Assembly: GCA_964573095.1 (NCBI GenBank)
Contig: CAZNIK010000002.1
Location: 199,230 to 263,229 of the forward strand
Direction of reading: 5' to 3'
DNA length: 64,000 nt
From: an uncultured Candidatus Saccharibacteria bacterium
Lineage (GTDB): Bacteria; Patescibacteriota; Saccharimonadia; Saccharimonadales; 2-12-FULL-41-12
Shown: in pieces, positions 2,605-29,715 of the stretch
How positions within the stretch are numbered: the stretch's first letter is position 1
How the letters are laid out: every line of letters starts with the position of its first letter
The notes under the pieces: model-generated
The model's input: the letters and a program-made list of their open reading frames with translations, nothing else
Databases searched by the model: none
Told to the model about the DNA's origin: nothing
Translations under genes and position numbers: made by a program

Positions 2605-4029
2605 TTATTTGGCTCCCGAGCCACCAAAAACGGCTCTTAGAGTTTTGAGCAGGATGATGATATCGAGCCAAAATGTCCAGTTTTGAACATAGTAGGTGTC
2701 GAGTTTTCGTCGTTGTTCGAAGCTGAGGTCGCGCCGCCCCGAAACTTGTGCCAGACCGGTGACACCGGATTTTACACTCAAAATATGCTGTTTGTGCCGA
2801 TAGCCTCTCAGCTCTTCTGGAATAAGCGCTCTTGGACCGACTAAGCTGATGTCGCCCCTAAGCACGTTAATAAGTTGCGGTAATTCGTCAAGGCTGGTTG
2901 CGCGGACAAAACTCCCGAGTCTTAAGATTCGAGGATCATGCGGAAGATAATCACCATTTTCCCGATATTGTTTTGCGAGCTGTGGCTTCCCAAGCAGTGC
3001 AAAGGCATCTTCCGGCGAGGTGCCGTCGAAGCGCCGATACTGAGACCGGAACTTGAGCACCGTAAATGGTTCATCAAATTGAGTAAGACGGGTTTGGGTG
3101 AAAAATACTGGCTCTCTGGGATTGGCAAGCTTCATGAGCACAATGACCAACAAAAACACTGGACTTAACGATACAAGTAGGAGTAGCGATACAATAAAAT
3201 CAAATAACCGCTTTAGTATTCGTCCCCAACCAACTAATGCAGTTTGATGTACGGTGACAAGTGGTGTTCCTCGAAACAGCTCAACCTCGATATTGCCAAC
3301 AAATAATTCGTCATTGCCGGGAATAAATCGATAGGCGATGTGGTGGCTCTGCGCATAGTTCATAATTTCATCATTTTTGTCAGCCGAGGAGTACAGCTCG
3401 GTCTGAATAATGCTGTGAATAACCGGCTTCTTGAGAGTAGTTATGGCATCTTCAAAGCTATGAAAGACCCGAAAGTTTTTGTACGCCTCGCCGACAAGAC
3501 CGACAATTTTATGCCCAGAATGCCTGGTATCTTCGAGCTCTTCAATGATGGCGCTTCGAGCTGGGCCGCTTCCCACGATAAGCACGTTATTGATGCCAAT
3601 GCCATAAGAGAACAGCTCTGATCGGAGCAATCGAGCCAGCGTGCGAAAAAGCACCAAAAAACCAAACCCAAGGAGCAATCCATAGACTGCTACTAAACGG
3701 GCCGGAAAGAGATTATCTGGACTCACAAAATCATAGCCGATCACAAACAGCATTCCCAGCACCGATCCTATCGCCAGTTTACCGAGCTCTGCAAACCGAT
3801 TGTCGTACGTTTCTCGCCTGTAAAGACCCAGGAACGCAAGAACCAGTATCCAGAGTGGCAACACCGTAAAAAAGGCTTGTATGTAGGTCTCGGCGGGGAT
3901 CTGTTGGATTAAGGGGCGATCATCGTACTTTACGCGCACAATATACGCCACTCCAAATGCAGCGATGAGAGCCAAAAAGTCACCGATAACTAGAAAAATG
4001 CTGTAAATACTTGAGGCGTTGTTCTTCAT
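2605..4029 (-). CDS. polyprenyl glycosylphosphotransferase (WbaP/bacterial sugar transferase family)
   Basis: 474 aa with N-terminal TM helices. The C-terminal domain contains RPKEPVFFTQTRL, LDELPQLINVLRGDISLVGPRA and VKSGVTGLAQV. Confidence 0.85.
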   Translation of the reverse strand: MKNNASSIYSIFLVIGDFLALIAAFGVAYIVRVKYDDRPLIQQIPAETYIQAFFTVLPLWILVLAFLGLYRRETYDNRFAELGKLAIGSVLGMLFVIGYDFVSPDNLFPARLVAVYGLLLGFGFLVLFRTLARLLRSELFSYGIGINNVLIVGSGPARSAIIEELEDTRHSGHKIVGLVGEAYKNFRVFHSFEDAITTLKKPVIHSIIQTELYSSADKNDEIMNYAQSHHIAYRFIPGNDELFVGNIEVELFRGTPLVTVHQTALVGWGRILKRLFDFIVSLLLLVSLSPVFLLVIVLMKLANPREPVFFTQTRLTQFDEPFTVLKFRSQYRRFDGTSPEDAFALLGKPQLAKQYRENGDYLPHDPRILRLGSFVRATSLDELPQLINVLRGDISLVGPRALIPEELRGYRHKQHILSVKSGVTGLAQVSGRRDLSFEQRRKLDTYYVQNWTFWLDIIILLKTLRAVFGGSGAK

Positions 4030-4117
4030 GATCTATCTGTAGCAGATTATAACACCGTATCTTTCTTGTTTTTGCTATACTACAATCTAAAGAGAACAAA
4101 ATATAAACAGCAGATTC

Positions 4118-4600
4118 ATGAAAAAAAGAGATAAAAAAGAATTATTGCGTATTACCGAGTACATGATAAGTGGTGGTGCCTATTTCTGGTCGGGGTATGC
4201 AACGTTCTTCTTTATTGATAAAGTGCTCGGCTTAAGCTTTTTTTGGGCAAAATCGGTTTCAACACTCACCGGCTGGACGGTAAATTATCTGCTGCAACGG
4301 TATTGGGTTTTTAAAAATCCTAAACTTAAGAAGCATCAAACCGAGGTGACTACTAGATATGTAATTATTACTTTGGTTGATTTTGTGCTGGATTACCTTA
4401 TTGTGTTTGGATTAAAATCAATTGGAATTACTCCTTACATTGGACAATTTGCTTCGGCGGCGTTCTTTACGGGCTGGAATTATTTTTGGTACAAGTTTTG
4501 GGTGTTCCCAGACAAGTTTAAGGTCGCAAAAAAAGCCAAGCAAACACCGGCGCGGGTTATTGCTCATCGAGCGCACGGACACAGCGCCTATAGAAAGTAA
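4118..4600 (+). CDS. GtrA-family membrane protein
   Basis: 160 aa with 4 TM segments. Contains the GtrA-like motifs YLLQRYWVF and NYFWYKFWVF. Confidence 0.7.
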   Translation: MKKRDKKELLRITEYMISGGAYFWSGYATFFFIDKVLGLSFFWAKSVSTLTGWTVNYLLQRYWVFKNPKLKKHQTEVTTRYVIITLVDFVLDYLIVFGLKSIGITPYIGQFASAAFFTGWNYFWYKFWVFPDKFKVAKKAKQTPARVIAHRAHGHSAYRK

Positions 4601-4620
4601 TAAAGTACGTTGCTTAAGAT

Positions 4621-5076
4621 ATGGACGCAAAACAAACGAGGCCAACAAAAAAACAATACGAACTATTGCTGTTTATTGAAAAGTTTGTCAGTCAACACGG
4701 CTACGGGCCAAGCTATCGGGAGATCATGAAAGGCTGTGGATACAATTCTGTGGCAACCGTTGCGCTGCACGTTAATAATCTTATTTCTAGAGGTCATTTA
4801 CAGAAAAAAGGTCGCCTGGCACGGTCACTTGAGGTCGTAAAACCATCAACAACATCTACCAAAGTTCAAACCAACATTATCAATCCCTCCGAAGAGAAGT
4901 GGCTGATTGAAAAGATAGATTATCAGTTTCAACAGCTTGAAGGTTCGAACGCACGAACCCAAGACGACGTTGATAAGCTGTATGTATTGGTAGCTGCGCT
5001 GAGGGTGTTGGGGTTGGATGGGGCGGCGCAGTCATTCCTGGCTCGTCTACAGACACTAAAGAAGGACGTATACTAA
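4621..5076 (+). CDS. LexA N-terminal (winged-helix) DNA-binding domain protein lacking the S24 peptidase domain
   Basis: PTKKQYELLLFIEKFVSQHGYGPSYREIMKGCGYNSVATVALHVNNLISRGHLQKK matches the LexA DNA-binding domain pattern. The C-terminal 80 aa show no Ala-Gly cleavage site and no Ser/Lys dyad. Confidence 0.65.
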   Translation: MDAKQTRPTKKQYELLLFIEKFVSQHGYGPSYREIMKGCGYNSVATVALHVNNLISRGHLQKKGRLARSLEVVKPSTTSTKVQTNIINPSEEKWLIEKIDYQFQQLEGSNARTQDDVDKLYVLVAALRVLGLDGAAQSFLARLQTLKKDVY

Positions 5077-5080
5077 GACG

Positions 5081-5890
5081 ATGGATGTGTTGCAAGCAAT
5101 TGCCCTTGGGGTGCTTGAGGGCTTTACGGAATTTCTGCCAATCTCGAGTACCGGTCATCTCATTGTCGCCCAAGATCTTATTGGCTTCCGAGATAGTGCC
5201 AAAATATTTACGGTAGTGATTCAACTGGGAGCCATATTTGCCATAGTCTGGAACTATCGAAGAGACCTTCTCGCCAAAGTAGCGGGGCTATTTCGTGGTG
5301 ATAAAAAAACTATTAATTTTTGGATAGTCTGGATGCTGGCTACTGTTCCTGGTGGCGCCGCTGGGTTCTTGCTGAAGGACAAAGTGAGTGTGTATGCAGT
5401 GACCGTAACTGTGGCGATTGCGTTGATTCTTGGCGGCATACTTATTTGGTTGATAGAGACGTATCACAAGGCAGCGCCGAACAAAACCGGTAAGGCTCAT
5501 CTAGACAAAATTACAAAAAAACAGGCATTGGCGGTCGGTTGCTATCAAGCACTTGCACTTATTCCCGGTGTTTCTCGGTCCGGTTCGACCATAATGGGCG
5601 GGCTGCTTTCTGGGTTTGACCGTGTGACCGCAGCGGCTTTTTCGTTTTATATCAGCATACCGATTTTAGTCCTTGCCGGCGCATATCAGCTTTTTGGCAA
5701 TGAGAATGATTTCTCAACCGTCCAAGGCGGCGCTTCGGCAATTGTCGCAGGTACCCTTGCGGCTTTCGTTACCGCCTTGCTGACGATTCGCTGGCTGCTT
5801 TCATATGTTTCGCGTCATAGCTTCAAGCTATTTGCCTATTATCGGATAATTCTCGGCAGCATCATCTTGGTCGTTCTGTCGTTCAGCTAA
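5081..5890 (+). CDS. uppP: undecaprenyl-diphosphate phosphatase
   Basis: 269 aa. Contains GVLEGFTEFLPISSTGHL and PGVSRSGSTI, the hallmark UppP/BacA motifs. Confidence 0.9.
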   Translation: MDVLQAIALGVLEGFTEFLPISSTGHLIVAQDLIGFRDSAKIFTVVIQLGAIFAIVWNYRRDLLAKVAGLFRGDKKTINFWIVWMLATVPGGAAGFLLKDKVSVYAVTVTVAIALILGGILIWLIETYHKAAPNKTGKAHLDKITKKQALAVGCYQALALIPGVSRSGSTIMGGLLSGFDRVTAAAFSFYISIPILVLAGAYQLFGNENDFSTVQGGASAIVAGTLAAFVTALLTIRWLLSYVSRHSFKLFAYYRIILGSIILVVLSFS

Positions 5891-6057
5891 ACCTATAAAA
5901 ATCTGAGTAAACAGTAGCAAATAACCGACGATCGGACTAAAAGTGCTACGGTTTTGGGCGATGCTGGCGATGCCCTAAGAGGGCGCTAGGGATGGTGTAG
6001 ATTTTACGGCTTACACACCACAGCTAGCGTGGTATGCTTGTTAGTACTTTAATATTT

Positions 6058-6214
6058 CAAGACGCTGGAAGTTGGTGAAAATCCAACACTGTGCCGCAAC
6101 GGTGATCGCAAAATACGCGACAAGTCCGATACAGCAAACAAGAGACAAATTCCCGAGCAGGAAGTCGATCAACCATCCACTGAACCACCTGCTCGCAAAA
6201 AAGCAGGTTTTTTA
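6058..6214 (+). promoter_or_regulatory. candidate cobalamin-type (short/variant) riboswitch core plus terminator/SD-sequestering hairpin
   Basis: ctGGAAgttGGTGAAAATCCaacaCtGtGCCGCAACGGTGA (6064-6105) resembles the cobalamin core AGGGAA-n-GGTGnAAnTCC-n-CnG-n-CCCGCnACnGTnA. A GTTGG/CCAAC hairpin carries a TGAAAAT loop. There is a short TCGC/GCGA hairpin, then cAAGTCCGATACAGC with CAGC complementary to GCTG at 6064-6067. The hairpin CCTGCT(6188-6193)/AGCAGG(6202-6207) plus T6 ends 1 nt before the ATG. Confidence 0.4.
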
Positions 6215-7507
6215 ATGGAAACTCTAGAACGTACTCAAGAAACCAGAACCCACAAGGATATATTTGACCCGTGTGCTGCCGTTCGAATGGCGCGCGAGGA
6301 CATTCAAGCGTACGGAGAGGTACAAGAAGGAACGTGGCAACAGATTTACAATGAGGAGCTTACCTATATTGCCGAAAGCCTCGACGCTCCGCACAAAACC
6401 ATAATTAACTACAGCTATCAACCTGGTACTGGGCTTCATGATGAACGCAACGTGTCGTTTGAAACGATGCTCCAAAATGGCAAAGAAGCGGCCGAAGCAC
6501 GGTTCCATCAAGACCCTCGCGCCGAGTTTCACCTCGTACGAACGCAGCATCACCAACAAGAAGGCTTTGTGCTTGAAGCGATGATGGACAATCGCGCCGA
6601 TTTTAATACACTGATCAGCTTCTCGCCGTTTCCAGAAGAAGCCTACGTGGAACACGGCGCTGAGTTTGTAAAGGATATTGGCTATAACCCAGATCGAAAA
6701 ATCGGTTTTATCTACGTATTTACCAAACAGAGTGAAACCCAGATGCAGTGCACCGCTGCAACTATCGACAATAGCGACCTTGAAGTCTTTAGGAGTGTTG
6801 CCGCAACCTTGGGAAAAGAAATTCCGAATACCCAAAATAGTGACGACTTTCTCGGCGAACGCATTACCTTAGCGCTTGACGAAGCGGCTCAAGCAACGCT
6901 GGTTGATCAAATTGTCAACTCCTATGATACCCAGATGGGTTTGTGTTACGAAGGACAGGGTGTATTCCGAAGTGGTAGGAATAAAAATGTCCAAGAAGTC
7001 GATGGCTGGGATTTTGCCACTGCCCAGCATGATCTTATTGAATACTATCTTCGAGAAGTCGAAACGCTTGCCAAAAGCAATTGGGACGAGGAAAGTATTC
7101 TTAAGGCCAAAAAAATTCTCACCGTCAGTGTATGGACGGAGATGAGCGATCGACTGCAGAATATGCAGAGAAAAGATGTTCGGCTTTCGGACATTGCTGA
7201 GTATTCATCAAATGCTCATTTGTCCATGGATCATCAGATTAATCTAGCGTTTCACCGAGCACTCGGCAGAAGGGCGGGTATGGTTGGTTGCGGAGGTAGT
7301 ATTGACCTAGATGTTACGGCAATTGCCAATGACGATCTAGAAGCCCTTACGAAAATTGGCTTTGGTGCCGACAAGACAAAACTTATTTGGAAAAAGGGCA
7401 AGTGTCGAGTGCCAGACTGCAAGAATAAAGAAAAACTAACTGAAGTTGCTCAGTGCAATGTCTGTAAGAGCTGCCAAGCAGAATTTGATAGGGGCATTCG
7501 CAAATAG
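6215..7507 (+). CDS. hypothetical protein with a C-terminal Cys-rich zinc-ribbon-like tail
   Basis: 430-aa ORF with ordinary composition and no motif I recognise. The C-terminus is KCRVPDCKNKEKLTEVAQCNVCKSCQAEF. Confidence 0.6.
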   Translation: METLERTQETRTHKDIFDPCAAVRMAREDIQAYGEVQEGTWQQIYNEELTYIAESLDAPHKTIINYSYQPGTGLHDERNVSFETMLQNGKEAAEARFHQDPRAEFHLVRTQHHQQEGFVLEAMMDNRADFNTLISFSPFPEEAYVEHGAEFVKDIGYNPDRKIGFIYVFTKQSETQMQCTAATIDNSDLEVFRSVAATLGKEIPNTQNSDDFLGERITLALDEAAQATLVDQIVNSYDTQMGLCYEGQGVFRSGRNKNVQEVDGWDFATAQHDLIEYYLREVETLAKSNWDEESILKAKKILTVSVWTEMSDRLQNMQRKDVRLSDIAEYSSNAHLSMDHQINLAFHRALGRRAGMVGCGGSIDLDVTAIANDDLEALTKIGFGADKTKLIWKKGKCRVPDCKNKEKLTEVAQCNVCKSCQAEFDRGIRK

Positions 7508-9199
7508 CTATTCTGTTCCGTCAGAGAAATGTTCGGTGAGGTAGTCGAGGTGTTTTTCGCGGAATTTTTTAAACTCGCTTTTCTTTAGTCCGGAGTTCTT
7601 GATGAAGGTGCCGATTTTCTCGCTGCCGATATAGTGTGGCATCATCACGTAGCTGGCACCAAGCTCGTACAGCTGTGCGGCTTGTGCAACATTGTCGGCA
7701 TGGCAAATTACGACCGAATGGGGATTGATGCGCTCCATCAGTTTCACCAAAAAGATGTTTGTGTCATGATCCGAAATGGTTGAAACCAGCAGCTTACTTT
7801 TCTCGATCCCGGCCTCATGCAACAATTCAATGTCGGTGGCGTCGCCGTAAAGATACTCAATTTTTTGGTGCTCTAAAAGGTCTATTATTTCGGGATCATA
7901 ATCGATTACGATATAGCGCTTTTTTAGGCTTTTAAAGACGCGTAAAAATTCATGGCCACCCTTGTGGTAGCCGAAAAGCACCAAATCGTAGTGGTGTTTG
8001 GTGATCTGTTGTTCGTACTGGGTTTTTCGTCGTTCAAATAGCCCAAGGTGTCGTTGAAAGTAACCAAAGAGTTGCTCGCTGTACATGATGACGTAGGTCG
8101 AGTAGGCAATCGAAAGAAGGGTCACCAGGGTAAGAGTGGTTACCAGCTCAGCACTGACTTGCCCTTGTTTGTAGGCCAGTGTAATAAAAACCAGTGAGAA
8201 TTCGCTCGTTTGAGCAAGCGCTGTCGAGGCCTTAAAGCTGGTTTGTTTTGTATAGCCCATAAGTCCCATAATTGTGAGGACAACAAACGGCTTAATTAGA
8301 ATTACGACGACCAAGAAGGCAAAAATGTCACCCAGGTAGTTATATATGTTGTCGAAGCGAAGTTGGGTTCCGAGCGCGATGAAGAATACCACAATGAAAA
8401 AATCGCGAAGCGGGCGAAGACGGGCGCTAATTTCCTGTGAGTACGGTAGCGATGCGAGGCTGACACCCGCCACTAAGGCGCCCATCTCGAGACTAAAGCC
8501 GGCCAGCTCGAACAGCGCTGAGCTTCCAAAACCCCACCCAATGGCAAACAGGAATAAGAACTCTTGACTGCCCGCGATAAGGTTGTGCATTTTTGGAAGA
8601 ATCTTGCCACCAATAAGAAACAAAGGAATCGCCACCAGTATGCCCTTGCCAACCAGGCTGGCGAGCTGAGTAACAGAAAATCCAGTACCGTCGCCTTGAG
8701 CGGCCAGCAGCAAGAGTGCGGTTGCGGCAACGATATCTTGAATAATGAGTATGCCAATAACGATCTTGCCGTAAAGGCGACCCTGCTGCTTCTTGTCGGA
8801 AAGCAATTTAAGAATAATAATTGTGCTACTAAAGGCGGTCGCAACACCCGCAAATAGTGACTCGGTATCACCAAGACCTAATAGTTTTCCGACGGTATAA
8901 CCAGCCAGCGTGGTAATTGCAACTTGCAGAACACCAACAGTGCCGGCAACCTTGCCGACCTCCTTTATTACGCCTGGATTCAGCCCAAGACCAATAATAA
9001 ACAGCAGTAGTGCAATACCAATGCTAGAAAAGGTTTCTATGGTTTCTGATGATTGAACCAGGTGCAGAAACGACGGACCCACCAAAATTCCGGTAATGAT
9101 GTGGCCAATAATCAGAGGCTGATGGATCAACCTCATACAAAATGCAATAAACGCACCGAGGGCAATAATAAGGCTTAGTTCTGTGAAGACGGAGTGCAT
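7508..9199 (-). CDS. monovalent cation:proton antiporter (CPA2/Kef-type) with a C-terminal RCK/TrkA-N domain
   Basis: Multi-TM N-terminal region followed by YDLVLFGYHKGGHEFLRVF...IVIDYDPE...YGDATDIELLHEAGI, a Rossmann RCK domain. I prefer the ATG at 9199 (MHSVFTE) over the TTG at 9241 used by the track. Confidence 0.8.
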   Translation of the reverse strand: MHSVFTELSLIIALGAFIAFCMRLIHQPLIIGHIITGILVGPSFLHLVQSSETIETFSSIGIALLLFIIGLGLNPGVIKEVGKVAGTVGVLQVAITTLAGYTVGKLLGLGDTESLFAGVATAFSSTIIILKLLSDKKQQGRLYGKIVIGILIIQDIVAATALLLLAAQGDGTGFSVTQLASLVGKGILVAIPLFLIGGKILPKMHNLIAGSQEFLFLFAIGWGFGSSALFELAGFSLEMGALVAGVSLASLPYSQEISARLRPLRDFFIVVFFIALGTQLRFDNIYNYLGDIFAFLVVVILIKPFVVLTIMGLMGYTKQTSFKASTALAQTSEFSLVFITLAYKQGQVSAELVTTLTLVTLLSIAYSTYVIMYSEQLFGYFQRHLGLFERRKTQYEQQITKHHYDLVLFGYHKGGHEFLRVFKSLKKRYIVIDYDPEIIDLLEHQKIEYLYGDATDIELLHEAGIEKSKLLVSTISDHDTNIFLVKLMERINPHSVVICHADNVAQAAQLYELGASYVMMPHYIGSEKIGTFIKNSGLKKSEFKKFREKHLDYLTEHFSDGTE

Positions 9200-9262
9200 T
9201 TTTGTATAATTTGGAGTACCGTTAGTAGTGAGCTCTAACAAACCACTTACGCTTAATTATAG

Positions 9263-15970: not shown

Positions 15971-18079
15971 ATGGCCAAAGAAAAAGAACAATCAAGCGAA
16001 GACACCACTTCTTTTTTAGGAAAAGACATTGACCCGGAGCTTCTAAATAAAGTTGACGAGTATATGGATATTAAAGAACCAGACCCAGAAGTAGTACCCG
16101 AAGCGCCGATGGAGTTTGAGCCTCCCTCGAGTGAAGATATTGCGAGCGCTCCACTATTGCCAAGTGAGAAGCTACCTAACCTTGAAGGCAAAAAGAAATC
16201 GACCTCCAAGAAAGACCTCCAAGAAACACCACCGTTTGAATCATCAGATAAACAACAAAAAGACGCAAAGGCATCGCTCCCACTTGAGTCAACTCGCGAA
16301 ACCGATAAAGAGGATTCTGGAGAGCAGCAGTCTATTGCCGAGGAAACCGCCGAACGTTTACCACGTGATGAACTTGGACTAGAAGATCCACAAACCGAGA
16401 AAGCAGTGGATGAGATTATTGCCGCGGAAGCGGATGAGCTCATTGAGGCTGGTGACAATAGACGGGCAAAGGAAAATGAAACTGTTCCAAAAACAGGGCT
16501 ACGAGCAAAGGTAAAAGCGTTTTTTTCGGCGTGGTGGCACAACAAGAAATATCGCAACACGACACTTGCTATAGGATTCTTTGCTCTCGTCATTATCGCA
16601 ATTGTTCCTAGTACGCGGTATTACGCGCTCAACTCTATAGGTGTTCGGGCCTCGTCGTCAGTAGTCGTGTTGGACGAAAAAACGAACCTGCCACTCAAAA
16701 ATGTTGAGTTTACAATCGCCGGTATGAGCGACAAGACCGATCGTGATGGACGGGCAAAAGTCGAGAAAATAAAGCTTGGTGACCAGACAATGGTCATTAA
16801 TAAGCCTGGTTTTGCCCGTATTGATCGGAAATTAACCGTCGGCTGGGGCAGCAATCCGCTTGGGGAGACAAAACTGACCCCAACAGGCACGCAGTATACG
16901 TTTTTGGTGAGCGATTTTTTGTCGCAAAAGCCGATAACTAAGGCCGAGGCCAACAGCGGTGAGTCGAGTGCTCGTGCGAGTACAAACGGCGAAATTGTGC
17001 TCACAGTTCCTCAGACCGATCAAGATGACATCGAGGTGATAATTTCTGCTGACGAGTACCGAACCGAAACGCTAAAAGTTGTTCCAGGCAAAAAGGATAG
17101 CACCCAGCTATTGATGGTTCCGGCAAAAAAACACGCGTTTATTACCAAGCGTACGGGTACATTTGATCTGTATAAAATTGATGTTGACGGCAAAGATGAG
17201 CAAAAGGTCTTGAGTGGAACGGGGAGGGAACGTCAAGATACGATGGCGCTCGTTCCTCATCCAAAGAAAAATTTGACGGCGCTCGTTTCCGTCAGAGACA
17301 ATATCAAAAACGGCGACGGGTTCTTACTTAGCTCACTAAATGTTATCGATCTTGAAAAAGACGAAGTGAAAAAAGTTACCGATTCTGAGCGCATTCAAAT
17401 TATTGACTGGGTTGGCGACAAGCTCGTGTACGTAAAAATTACTCAAGGCGCCAGTGAAGCCAACGTGAACAGGCATAAGCTTATGAGCTATGACGTGCGC
17501 ACCGAGAGCGAGAAAGAGTTAGCGAGTACAAACTACTTCAACGATGTACTTATTGATCGTGGGTCAATTTATTATAGTCCAGCGGTATACAAGGTGAACG
17601 GTGCCGTTGGGTTATTCAAAATTGATGCTGATGGCAACAATAAGAAGACGGTGTACGACAAAGAAGTTTGGAACTTACTGAGGACGGAGTATGACAGGAT
17701 AAGTGTATCTGTCGGACAAGATTGGTATGAGTTGACGCCTTCAACTGGCGCGTTTGCAAAAACCAATGTCGCGCCGCCACTCCTAAAGTCCAGGATCTAT
17801 GTTGATAATCAAGACGGTCAAAAGAGTCTGTGGGTTGATGAGCGCGATGGCAAAGGGGTGCTGGTTGTGGTTGATGTGAACTCGAAGCAAGAAACTGTCC
17901 TTCGCGCTCAAGGCGGCCTAAAGAATCCGATCACCTGGGTTGATACAGCTCATGCTGTTTACCGAGTCGCAAATGGCCAAGAAACCGCTGACTATATAAT
18001 TAGTCTTAGTGGTGGAGAGCCACGAAAAATTAGAGATGTGACAAATGTTGCGGGTGTTGATCGCTGGTACTATTACTAG
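15971..18079 (+). CDS. hypothetical large membrane-anchored protein (acidic disordered N-terminus, one TM, beta-rich C-terminal region)
   Basis: 702-aa ORF. The N-terminal 190 aa are rich in E/D/K/P, with a TM segment at NTTLAIGFFALVIIAIVP. Any beta-propeller or TolB-like character of the C-terminal region is only an impression. Confidence 0.6.
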   Translation: MAKEKEQSSEDTTSFLGKDIDPELLNKVDEYMDIKEPDPEVVPEAPMEFEPPSSEDIASAPLLPSEKLPNLEGKKKSTSKKDLQETPPFESSDKQQKDAKASLPLESTRETDKEDSGEQQSIAEETAERLPRDELGLEDPQTEKAVDEIIAAEADELIEAGDNRRAKENETVPKTGLRAKVKAFFSAWWHNKKYRNTTLAIGFFALVIIAIVPSTRYYALNSIGVRASSSVVVLDEKTNLPLKNVEFTIAGMSDKTDRDGRAKVEKIKLGDQTMVINKPGFARIDRKLTVGWGSNPLGETKLTPTGTQYTFLVSDFLSQKPITKAEANSGESSARASTNGEIVLTVPQTDQDDIEVIISADEYRTETLKVVPGKKDSTQLLMVPAKKHAFITKRTGTFDLYKIDVDGKDEQKVLSGTGRERQDTMALVPHPKKNLTALVSVRDNIKNGDGFLLSSLNVIDLEKDEVKKVTDSERIQIIDWVGDKLVYVKITQGASEANVNRHKLMSYDVRTESEKELASTNYFNDVLIDRGSIYYSPAVYKVNGAVGLFKIDADGNNKKTVYDKEVWNLLRTEYDRISVSVGQDWYELTPSTGAFAKTNVAPPLLKSRIYVDNQDGQKSLWVDERDGKGVLVVVDVNSKQETVLRAQGGLKNPITWVDTAHAVYRVANGQETADYIISLSGGEPRKIRDVTNVAGVDRWYYY

Positions 18080-28245: not shown

Positions 28246-29715
28246 ATGGCTCAGCAAGAACTACCAATATTTGTTCAAGAATTACCAGAAGGCCCGAACG
28301 TAGAGTTTAAAAGTGGTAGTGAGGGTCGCTTACCAAAGGATATCTGGAAAACAATATCTGCTTTCTCAAACACTGAAGGAGGTAAAATAGTTTTCGGAAT
28401 TACCAATGACGGCTCAGACCTTAATTTGTCAAAGACGAATATTGATAAATTACAACTTGATATAGTCTCATTATGCCAGAACAGCTTCAACACAGTAATT
28501 ACCCCTGAGGTTGTTAATAAAGACGGCACATTAATTATCAATATACTGCCTGTTGCAGCTCCTTTGCGCCCTGTTTTTTCTAAGAAGCAAGGCAGGGATA
28601 AGGGCACATACATTCGAATTGGTTCTTCAAACCATATTGCGAATGACGAAGCTTTAAAGCGATTCAGTATTGCTGCAAAAGGTGGAGCTGAGATAGCAGT
28701 ATATGAAGGTTTTCATTATAAAACTTACTTCGATGATAGTGCCGTTGCTTCATTCGTAAAGTCAATGAATTCTACTAGAGGAAATATCTATCAAGATTTT
28801 ACTACAGAAGAAGTTCTTATAAAGCAAAAAGCGATTAACAATAATGGCGATGTTACATTATTTGGTCTTATGGCTTTCAGTAAATTGGAGAGTTTGCAAG
28901 AAATAGTATCGCCAACGTTGAATATAGCAGTCACACAGTATCCTGGCCTATCAAAGGTAAACGAAGACGATGTACATGAAACGTATATAGATAACAGGGA
29001 GTTTAATGGCAATGCAGTAGTTTTATTTGAAAAGTCATTCGATTTCATCAAAAGCAAACTACCTGTTAGCGGCACCGTTGAACCATCGGGTAAAAGAAGA
29101 GACTATCTAGTAATACCTGAGATTGCTCTTAGAGAAGCCCTTGCGAATGCAATAGCACATCGAGATTATGGCAGCCATTCATCAAGAATTCAGATTGATA
29201 TTTTCTCAGACAGAATAGAAATAATTAATCCTGGCACTAGTTTGGTTCCATTAGAACAACTCGATAAAGCACCGTCTGCAACTCGTAATCCGTTAATTAT
29301 GAACTTTTTAAAGGAACTTGGAATTACGGAGCAAAAAGCCAGAGGTATTAGAACAATTAAAATTTCATTAAAAAAAGCTGGCTTGCTTGAGCCAGGATTT
29401 GAAAATATTAACGACTCATTTAAAATTACACTTTCAAGCTCAGCATTTATATCGAGTGAAGATAAAGTTTGGTTAGCAAGATTTAGCGCATACAATTTGA
29501 ATGAAAGGCAGCAAACTGCGTTAGCGCACATTAGGAATAACCCAGCAGGCATAAATAACAGCGAATATCGAAGTATTAACAGTATGGTTAACGTAAGAGA
29601 CGACAAGAAAGCAAACAAAGAATTGCGCCAACTTGTAGAAAAGGGGCTGCTTACTGCAGTTGGAGATAATAAGGTTCGACGCTATGTAATGAATCCACAG
29701 TTTCTTATTAGCTAA
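28246..29715 (+). CDS. AlbA_2 (Schlafen-like) plus HATPase_c_4 plus C-terminal wHTH protein (COG2865-type putative regulator/defence-associated)
   Basis: Contains NVEFKSGSEG..P.DIWKTISAFSNTEGGKIVFGI (AlbA_2) and LREALANAIAHRDY...IQIDIFSDRIEIINPG (HATPase_c_4). The gene is visibly more AT-rich than its neighbours. Confidence 0.7.
   Translation: MAQQELPIFVQELPEGPNVEFKSGSEGRLPKDIWKTISAFSNTEGGKIVFGITNDGSDLNLSKTNIDKLQLDIVSLCQNSFNTVITPEVVNKDGTLIINILPVAAPLRPVFSKKQGRDKGTYIRIGSSNHIANDEALKRFSIAAKGGAEIAVYEGFHYKTYFDDSAVASFVKSMNSTRGNIYQDFTTEEVLIKQKAINNNGDVTLFGLMAFSKLESLQEIVSPTLNIAVTQYPGLSKVNEDDVHETYIDNREFNGNAVVLFEKSFDFIKSKLPVSGTVEPSGKRRDYLVIPEIALREALANAIAHRDYGSHSSRIQIDIFSDRIEIINPGTSLVPLEQLDKAPSATRNPLIMNFLKELGITEQKARGIRTIKISLKKAGLLEPGFENINDSFKITLSSSAFISSEDKVWLARFSAYNLNERQQTALAHIRNNPAGINNSEYRSINSMVNVRDDKKANKELRQLVEKGLLTAVGDNKVRRYVMNPQFLIS

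Follow-up and report, generated by a model that had tools for sequence, protein, structure and literature searches.

In this study we analysed a stretch of 64,000 nucleotides (nt), hereafter the window, from the genome of an uncultured Candidatus Saccharibacteria bacterium. Here, the uppP/BacA gene (5081-5890) is followed by a gap of 324 nt and then by an open reading frame (ORF) on the forward strand (6215-7507). A first-pass annotation, made from the sequence alone, had proposed that the gap holds a cobalamin-riboswitch-like leader with a terminator hairpin, and each of the leader elements it listed was found in its place. We interpret positions 6049-6213 as a class II (short, RF01689-type) cobalamin riboswitch, which serves the single gene 6215-7507 as an OFF switch, and assign this interpretation a probability of about 0.85. 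That the leader is a cobalamin riboswitch, of whichever class, is almost certain.

The cobalamin aptamer and its conservation

The Rfam scan covered the whole window on both strands and all 4227 families. The proposed cobalamin aptamer was recovered as a match to RF00174 at 6025-6153 (+), with 37.0 bits against a gathering score of 31.5 (E = 8.9e-6), and this was the sole non-tRNA match at the gathering threshold. The core aligned to RF00174 at high posterior probability, through GGAA, GGUGAAAAUCC, CUGU-GCCGCAAC-GGUGA and CAAGUCC-GAUACA-GC, and CCGCAACGGUGA starts at 6094. The T-loop of L4 (consensus GGUGNAANUCC), to which GGUGAAAAUCC aligns at 6074-6084 of the window, is nearly invariant in our alignment A3, as is the region of the B12 box, AAGUCCGAUACAGC. 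Rfam extends the match in the 5' direction (6025-6060, P1/P2), with many non-canonical pairs and low posterior probability, and we discarded this extension as unsupported.

The first-pass annotation had judged that the leader lacks both a large peripheral extension and a conserved box, and that it would therefore be a short or variant class. The extension is indeed absent, with 8 nt where RF00174 has 61 nt. What had been taken for a missing box is this absent extension, and the B12-box region itself is present as AAGUCCGAUACAGC at 6122-6135. The assignment to a short class fits the leaders of two distant homologues, L005 and L003 (loci related to the window are numbered with an L), whose genes have 34-35% protein identity to the window gene. 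These leaders match RF01689 with 47.2 and 37.8 bits, respectively, against a gathering score of 36.5. The P6 peripheral extension, the criterion for class I, is not found in the window, and because of the 8 nt in place of 61 nt we filed the leader in class II, though RF00174 gives its best score. The window differs from them only by a small hairpin inserted in L6, and this insertion explains why it scores better on RF00174 than on RF01689. The same insertion point holds anything from a 7-nt loop to about 90 nt in the relatives, the latter in L002, which otherwise has the same core. The leader of L001, with 88% protein identity in its gene, reaches 26.7 bits with RF00174 and on its own falls under the threshold; its P4 stem is UCCUG/CAGGA, compared with GUUGG/CCAAC in the window. 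The RNA is a well-supported but unremarkable example of an established riboswitch class, and would be labelled in any annotation with Rfam.

A word-index search retrieved seven homologues of the window protein. The first-pass annotation had suggested looking for the same leader ahead of homologous genes, and the block GGUGNAAUUCC...CUGUGCCGCAACGGU...AGUCCGAUACAGC lies upstream of every homologue with enough upstream sequence. The contig of L004 starts inside the aptamer, and that of L006, too short for the block, starts at the box following the aptamer. The scale of this conservation had been missed. A genome scan with the pattern CTGTGCCGCAACGGTN{3,33}AGYCCGAYMYAGC, using one genome per species, gave at least 119 loci, and the counts below refer to the matches listed. 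The block is present in at least 119 further species genomes, nearly all of Saccharibacteria or Saccharimonadales. Saccharibacteria are part of the Candidate Phyla Radiation (CPR). Some loci with a Saccharibacteria-type gene order and the riboswitch (L044, L046, L058, L061, L078) are titled Dormibacterota, Burkholderiaceae, Nevskiaceae or Babeliales, labels which probably reflect mis-binning in the assemblies.

A covariance model, R1, was built from 29 relatives with a short P6, leaving the window out, and specified the helices P3, P4, P5 and P6 and the hairpin that follows the aptamer. Over its full length (model positions 1-98 of 98), it aligned to 6049-6167 of the window with 71.2 bits (E = 7e-15), and it recovered a copy in every locus. 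Among 97 distinct sequences, 99.0% of 1724 cells held standard pairs, against 85.8% in shuffles and 22-58% with slid partners; as the alignment was fitted to the model, the percentage paired is inflated, the diversity of pair types is not. Compensatory changes were found at 13 of the 18 pairs, a number reached by none of 500 shuffles. P3 was 99.7% paired, with compensatory changes at three of its four pairs, and all five pairs of P4 covaried (98.5% paired), one position being UA in 41, GC in 40 and AU in 7 sequences. P5 and most of P6 are invariant and therefore uninformative. The four-way junction P3-P6 is backed by base-pair covariation in P3 and P4.

These data also bear on the idea that the likeness to an aptamer is fortuitous or a decayed relic, and that the leader is an ordinary terminator or attenuator. 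A window Rfam score modestly over threshold and the lack of a detected P1 helix would agree with it. The comparative data already contradict it, because the leader has been kept ahead of genes whose protein identity falls to 28-35%, occurs in at least 119 species, and shows strong compensatory covariation. Furthermore, the same element precedes recognised B12-repressed cargo, for example a class I ribonucleotide reductase, and also DUF4430-type proteins. We consider a relic extremely improbable.

From a proposed kissing loop to the start codon

The first-pass annotation had not recognised two elements that would couple ligand binding to the terminator, namely the P13/L13 hairpin and the antiterminator. 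After a linker with a modal length of 9 nt, 117 of 124 leaders carry a hairpin of 4-5 base pairs (bp) with the loop CGNGCA, which reads CGAGCA in 108 of them. Its stem is CUCC/GGAG in 44, CUCU/AGAG in 30, UUCC/GGAA in 9 and CUUC/GAAG in 6 leaders. With compensatory changes at all four pairs in the 97 sequences, P13 is proven by covariation.

The L13 loop, CG-A-GCA, is complementary to the UGCCG of L5 (6092-6096) if its third nucleotide is bulged, and this nucleotide is the sole variable position of the loop. Published hallmarks of the regulatory kissing loop of this class are an L13 on a stem-loop, conserved unpaired L13 nucleotides needed for switching, and a linker that is short and whose length matters (PMC5028336).

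Some relatives have shifted or doubled this hairpin. In L101, L106 and L115, no P13 is found in the leader; the aptamer is followed directly by a Shine-Dalgarno (SD) sequence and the AUG, and about 12-40 nt after the aptamer a hairpin UAGC-CGAGCA-GCUA occupies codons 2-6. Among the 120 loci, 27 further ones (e.g. L023, L024, L044) have an ORF that begins with AUGGCCG-NN-GCAGCC, so that the AUG falls within a 4-bp stem. The 7-nt loop of this stem, CGNNGCA, resembles a second L13 and is absent from the window. It may offer another docking site, used to control translation. A docking hairpin moved into the first codons, or duplicated across the AUG, would make an unusual kind of platform, one that lies within coding sequence.

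The antiterminator is a duplex of CGAGCAGG (6154-6161) with CCUGCUCG (6188-6195), at -15.5 kcal/mol. Over 77 loci, the mean complementarity of the two arms is -10.4 kcal/mol, against -6.6 +/- 0.25 with one arm shuffled and -9.83 +/- 0.18 with partners permuted among loci, where 1 of 300 permutations was as low as -10.4. For the nascent RNA 6136-6201, the antiterminator is the minimum-energy fold (-13.8 vs -4.5 for P13 alone). For the full platform 6136-6222, the minimum-energy fold consists of P13 and an extended terminator helix (-21.2 vs -15.6 kcal/mol for the antiterminator state). The OFF helix predicted in this way pairs UUUA 6211-6214 and UGGA 6216-6219, including U6216 and G6217 of the start codon, which pair with 6178-6179.

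A consensus scan reported a terminator with seven pairs, four of them G-C, and an 8-nt loop, followed by six U (6208-6213), the first one closing the stem. AGCAGG (6202-6207) ends 7 nt upstream of the ATG at 6215, as had been stated before. The suggestion that one hairpin both terminates transcription and masks the ribosome-binding site (RBS) gains from the relatives, since 84 of 120 related leaders have a hairpin and U-run ending 2-10 nt (mode 6) before the start, and 79 of these 84 terminators carry an SD-like purine triplet in the last 7 nt of the 3' arm. The dual function of the hairpin is thus well supported on comparative grounds.

We propose that the switch works as follows. When a corrinoid is bound in the four-way junction, L5 would dock onto L13 with the A of CG-A-GCA bulged. 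Docking would keep GAGCAGG within P13 and withhold the antiterminator strand, leaving the CCUGCU 5' arm free for AGCAGG, so that the terminator 6187-6213 could form and transcription would stop 1-2 nt upstream of the AUG. Should a transcript be read through, the same helix, lengthened by UGAA/UUUA and UCCA/UGGA, would bury both AGCAGG and the AUG. Without ligand, CGAGCAGG would pair with CCUGCUCG as antiterminator, and the SD and AUG would be single-stranded. The regulated protein would accordingly be induced under B12 scarcity. We regard this OFF logic through P13, antiterminator and terminator as very probable.

Control could also be mainly translational, with the hairpin 6176-6219 acting chiefly as a sequestrator of SD and AUG and with an incidental U-run. 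The remaining 36 of the 120 leaders have no U-run, and many of them retain the hairpin; some relatives carry their SD within the 3' arm of P13, or have P13 located in the coding sequence; and P13 is directly followed by the AUG in most members of a sister variant with a swapped P6 (see below). In the window, the pairing of U6216 and G6217 in the predicted OFF fold points the same way. On the other hand, the window terminator is a textbook one in its stem and U-run, and the U-run is kept in 70% of the relatives. Translational control does not exclude termination, and we expect both to operate; that the switch is mainly translational we consider unlikely.

The reverse logic, an ON switch in which the ligand promotes read-through, has precedent in activating corrinoid riboswitches (PMC10327014). 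In the window, L13 and the 5' arm of the antiterminator are the same nucleotides, hence docking of L13 would take the antiterminator away and favour termination. It is also B12-repressed genes that normally encode proteins like those of the cargo (class I ribonucleotide reductase, DUF4430-type and TonB-receptor-like proteins). An ON switch is therefore very improbable.

Several points weigh against a class II OFF switch. The Rfam score of the window lies just 5.5 bits over the threshold. The pairing positions of the putative kissing loop are invariant and thus lend no covariation support; L5 was fixed in our search pattern, and metagenomes scanned for L5 with a change at the second C yielded no such variant. 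A P1 helix with the J1/3 T-loop that contacts J6/3, a class II feature, was sought in the leader and rejected, as pairing between 5' flank and linker did not exceed the controls (-1.48 vs -1.48 and -1.61); class II members without J1/3 are known (PMC6158498). The antiterminator signal that remains in the partner permutation is small. In the models, the OFF fold is the more stable one at equilibrium even without ligand, so the switch would have to be under kinetic control. Lastly, the binding of a ligand, its selectivity and the termination step are inferred.

The features of the locus are collected in Table 1.

Table 1. Features of the riboswitch locus, in window positions
Feature	Positions	Strand	Basis
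Candidate extended -10 promoter element TGGTATGCT	6029..6037	+	weak, read from the sequence
Complete sensor: aptamer, linker and P13/L13 hairpin	6049..6167	+	model R1, 71.2 bits
Aptamer core: four-way junction closed by P3, GCUG 6064-6067/CAGC 6132-6135	6064..6135	+	Rfam alignment
P4 stem GUUGG/CCAAC and L4 T-loop UGAAAAU	6071..6087	+	5/5 pairs covary
P5 UG/CA and loop L5 UGCCG (6092-6096)	6090..6098	+	invariant in 97/97 sequences
P6 CGG/CCG and short inserted hairpin UCGC 6106-6109/GCGA 6117-6120	6100..6128	+	replaces class I peripheral extension
B12-box region AAGUCCGAUACAGC: J6/3 and 3' strand of P3	6122..6135	+	Rfam alignment to consensus CgAGCCAGGAGACCuGCC
P13/L13 hairpin GAC-(AAA)-UUCC, loop CGAGCA (6154-6159), GGAA-GUC	6144..6166	+	minimum-energy fold, covariation
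Antiterminator 5' arm CGAGCAGG, overlapping L13 and P13 3' arm	6154..6161	+	duplex with 6188-6195
Predicted OFF-state helix extension, 5' strand UCCA and UGAA, pairing with 6211-6219	6176..6184	+	predicted fold of 6136-6222
Intrinsic terminator: ACCUGCU 6187-6193, 8-nt loop, AGCAGGU 6202-6208, U run to 6213	6187..6213	+	consensus scan, folds
Antiterminator 3' arm CCUGCUCG, overlapping terminator 5' arm	6188..6195	+	duplex energy, folds
SD-like AGCAGG (6202-6207), U run, AUG 6215-6217	6202..6219	+	all paired in predicted OFF state
Regulated gene, 430-aa cytoplasmic protein	6215..7507	+	ORF
G-C-G-G motif, residues 358-361	7286..7297	+	alignments A2, A5
C-terminal zinc-ribbon-like module C397, C402, C414, C417, C420	7403..7474	+	alignments, predicted strands

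Elements of the form TGnTA...T, which resemble the candidate promoter element TGGTATGCT, lie 25-35 nt 5' of the aptamer in L002, L003 and L005; a consensus promoter scan of the window did not report the -10 candidate at 6029-6037. The 5' part of the gap (5940-6033) is kept only in the closest relatives, L001 and L007. It holds small hairpins at about 5957-5975 (GGGC...GCCC) and at 6017-6033 (ACCAC...GUGGU), the latter a weak terminator-like site. The more distant relatives have another, shorter spacer with the common motif AAUACUACA...UAGCGU.

An unannotated protein family in a B12 regulon

The regulated protein had been described as lacking a recognisable motif apart from its Cys-rich tail, and database searches agree with this description. 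The 430-aa (amino acid) ORF had no significant match in Pfam, PHROGs or PADLOC, and NCBIfam returned noise only (TraM, E 0.11, 12 bits vs a cut-off of 139). Pfam likewise gave no significant match for 80 family members and seven distant relatives. An exhaustive profile search collected 749 cluster representatives at E <= 1e-3, of which 159 at E <= 1e-30, and the names of ten representatives that were looked up were absent or "hypothetical protein". A second word-indexed homology search with an 80-sequence profile added almost nothing. The architecture of the family is kept, and its sequence evolves fast.

AlphaFold2, run with an 80-sequence alignment, gave a model with a predicted local distance difference test score (pLDDT) of 90.5 and a predicted template-modelling score (pTM) of 0.82. 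In this model, residues ~20-245 form an alpha/beta domain that contains an antiparallel sheet and residues 246-352 a helical region; a beta-hairpin and a ribbon rich in Cys complete it. Foldseek against the PDB gave a best E of 0.1 with template-modelling (TM) scores <= 0.15, and against the PDB and viral structures no match, with TM at most 0.19. Profile and single-sequence searches of PDB sequences returned as best hit an M16 peptidase (E = 0.066), and otherwise zinc-ribbon noise.

The predicted beta-hairpin 355-364 has the motif G-C359-G-G at its turn, and Cys359 is nearly invariant throughout the superfamily (alignments A2, A5), as are C397, C417 and C420. When shorter relatives are included, Glu54, Ser137 (Ser-Pro), Cys359, Cys417 and Cys420 remain near-invariant. 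The layout common to the superfamily starts with an alpha/beta domain that bears Glu54 and Ser137-Pro, continues with a helical middle and Gly-Cys359, and ends in a CxxC...CxxC ribbon. The Cys tail of the window protein is spaced C397-x4-C402-x11-C414-x2-C417-x2-C420. Short strands are predicted at 393-395 and 409-411 of this zinc-ribbon-like module, which has weak sequence matches to zinc-ribbon families; one relative weakly matches the L37Ae zinc ribbon (E = 0.55-0.9). The protein is cytoplasmic, and its sequence contains neither a signal peptide nor a transmembrane segment. Two public gene calls of the family, P0002 (485 aa; L001 6001-7458) and P0003 (470 aa; L002 6001-7413), begin inside the riboswitch. 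They carry spurious N-terminal extensions of 40-55 residues, and their true starts align with the window ATG.

Membership of the gene in a B12 regulon, suggested previously on condition that the leader be real, is now backed by the first ORF after the riboswitch, which belongs to this family in 99 of the 119 listed species loci according to an iterative profile. The family, in turn, is almost never seen without this riboswitch ahead of it. Single-linkage BLAST clustering, in which 108 of 122 were linked, was set aside because it overstated homogeneity; a direct profile reaches about 60, and the iterative one 99 of 119. A subgroup of first ORFs of ~500 aa has a partial profile match only. In six to seven loci (L027, L035, L046, L050, L085, L088, probably L038), the same syntenic slot is taken by DUF4430 (PF14478) and DUF6580 (PF20221) genes. 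Here, a DUF4430 protein of 127-151 aa with an N-terminal membrane anchor is followed by a DUF6580 membrane protein of ~180 aa, and the two are probably a B12 uptake pair. A literature search for either domain gave no relevant paper, and no mention of DUF6580.

Locus L048 carries two tandem copies of the riboswitch, the first ahead of nrdA-nrdB and the second ahead of the window-gene family. The first copy (2887-2985, +; 47.8 bits) has its own P13 (UUCU-CGAGCA-AGAU) and its own terminator. The genes that follow it (3105-5492 and 5759-6772) encode ATP-cone, Ribonuc_red_lgC and Ribonuc_red_sm domains, hence a class I reductase. The occurrence of one riboswitch ahead of nrdA-nrdB and of DUF4430/DUF6580 places it in an ordinary B12-repressed regulon.

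The sister variant of the riboswitch, with P6 swapped (CCG/CGG) and the same L13 box, was found at 77 metagenome loci. Its cargo includes DUF4430-like proteins (23), ~650-aa proteins resembling TonB-dependent receptors (9, a label judged from their sequence), reductase genes (3), a 240-aa Cys-rich family (12) and about 16 shorter proteins with the architecture of the window protein. The ~240-aa family, seen in L131, L139, L148, L153, L158, L163, L171, L175, L183, L184 and L205, has no Pfam match, begins with ...C(C)PHGLPxGACPxC..GGGG and is another unannotated candidate for the B12 regulon.

B12 regulons comprise uptake, corrinoid processing and B12-independent isozymes. We see an even chance that the family is an unrecognised, B12-dedicated superfamily with a new fold, which in Saccharibacteria, and apparently in other bacteria with small genomes, is what cobalamin riboswitches mainly control, and that it acts either as the missing cytoplasmic factor for corrinoid processing or delivery in these B12-auxotrophic bacteria (through Cys359 and the Cys4 module) or as a B12-independent replacement enzyme. 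Tentatively, we lean slightly towards a cytoplasmic corrinoid-handling factor for capture, dealkylation or activation of corrinoids for B12-dependent enzymes. We do so because the slot is alternatively filled by the DUF4430/DUF6580 pair, read as uptake genes, because the family co-exists with riboswitch-controlled nrdAB and does not replace it, and because a lone invariant Cys and a Cys4 module would suit cobalt ligation or thiol chemistry; Cys-ligated B12 proteins are known.

We rank second, as a somewhat more doubtful option, a B12-independent substitute or bypass enzyme, for example a zinc/thiol-dependent transferase, or an enzyme that helps to supply deoxynucleotides when class II ribonucleotide reductase is inactive. 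B12-independent isozymes are among the classic genes repressed by B12, L048 has riboswitch-nrdAB and riboswitch-gene units in tandem, and the near-invariant Glu, Ser and Cys together with the Cys4 module look enzyme-like in a protein that is cytoplasmic. However, the protein has no similarity to any known isozyme family, its slot is filled by the DUF4430 and DUF6580 pair in six to seven genomes, and this analysis identified no B12-dependent counterpart. No B12-dependent enzyme was found among the ten largest other ORFs of the window.

Two further points speak against a role in corrinoid handling. The functional assignment has no support from homology, fold match or a ligand site and draws on regulon logic and conserved residues. 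In addition, at least 33 genomes have a NadD-like gene no more than ~80 nt further on, a hint at another or broader role. This ~200-aa nucleotidyltransferase (PF01467; TIGR00482 at 111.8 bits, cut-off 112.45) directly follows the riboswitch-controlled gene on the same strand in 51 loci (e.g. L011, L018, L049, L073). The two genes probably share a transcript, and B12 control would be odd for a housekeeping NAD gene. We considered the NadD-like neighbour as a link between NAD and B12 and dropped this idea for want of a supportable mechanism. The gene that comes next in the window is not NadD-like, but a convergent Na+/H+ exchanger (7508-9241, -).

Other neighbours are as follows. Between the riboswitch-controlled and NadD-like genes, a few relatives (L003 7519-8235, L002 7586-8305, L028 2657-3532) encode a multi-pass membrane protein of ~240-290 aa without Pfam match and with the motifs ELSVPTW, DE..A.HE and NAWLL.IPF, which could be a transporter. 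Upstream, a ~150-aa protein (window 4621-5076) with an N-terminal LexA DNA-binding domain (PF01726) only, without the peptidase domain, is a strongly conserved neighbour of the riboswitch locus, found in 72 loci. The ten large ORFs scanned in the window include a 489-aa protein of the Schlafen AlbA_2 and HATPase_c_4 type (28246-29715, +) and a 702-aa protein with a weak DUF5050 match (15971-18079, +); the rest are housekeeping (FtsH, DnaK, LepA, MurJ, an MFS transporter, a Mur ligase, a glycosyltransferase and an ABC-2 permease).

The interest of the locus lies in the protein family and in a natural series of expression platforms. The riboswitch is a label that places an unannotated family of 749 representatives in the B12 response, and a ligand-defined riboswitch is an unusually specific computational handle on function, which makes the family directly testable. 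The organisms that carry it have minimal genomes and, as far as is known, are unable to make B12 and live attached to other bacteria. An answer on the role of the protein could supply a missing piece in the picture of how ultra-small bacteria acquire and employ a cofactor that they have to scavenge. Furthermore, the ~200 collected leaders form a compact series from transcriptional to translational to coding-embedded platforms, built around one predicted kissing-loop module. A literature search, which did not cover subscription journals, found no paper tying Saccharibacteria, CPR or Patescibacteria to cobalamin riboswitches or to this protein family.

Comparison with known cobalamin riboswitches

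The control of B12-independent reductase and uptake genes by B12 riboswitches has its likeness here in nrdA-nrdB (L048) and in DUF4430/DUF6580. In contrast to known B12 regulons, the dominant cargo is a family without annotation or recognisable fold.

With the class I adenosylcobalamin (AdoCbl) riboswitches (RF00174; Escherichia coli btuB, Thermoanaerobacter tengcongensis), the window has in common the core junction and the B12-box region, and would also share the logic of the kissing loop and OFF regulation. It differs from them in lacking the P6 extension of ~60 nt, a place where the relative L002 has its ~90-nt insert. The Enterococcus faecalis eut AdoCbl riboswitch (RF01482) and other class II members without J1/3 resemble it in their short aptamer and in having no identifiable J1/3-P1 (PMC6158498). 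RF01482 is, however, not the best-scoring model of clan CL00101 for the window, and both genetic context and platform differ.

The closest resemblance in our filing is to class II (RF01689, AdoCbl-II/AdoCbl-variant), with the env8 hydroxocobalamin riboswitch as prototype. The four-way junction P3-P6, the L4 T-loop and the lack of the class I peripheral extension are common to both, and the 3-bp P6 with a 7-nt loop is found in the closest relatives of the window. Unlike class II, the window has no detectable P1 helix and carries the small L6 hairpin. The L5-L13 kissing loop of class II, with L13 on a hairpin, unpaired L13 nucleotide(s) and a short single-stranded linker (PMC5028336), has its counterpart in the docking predicted for the window, where the bulge in L13 would be one nucleotide, compared with two in the prototype. 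In env8, the RBS lies in L13 and translation is controlled directly, whereas in the window L13 and P13 would be wired to an antiterminator and a terminator that hides the SD and the AUG.

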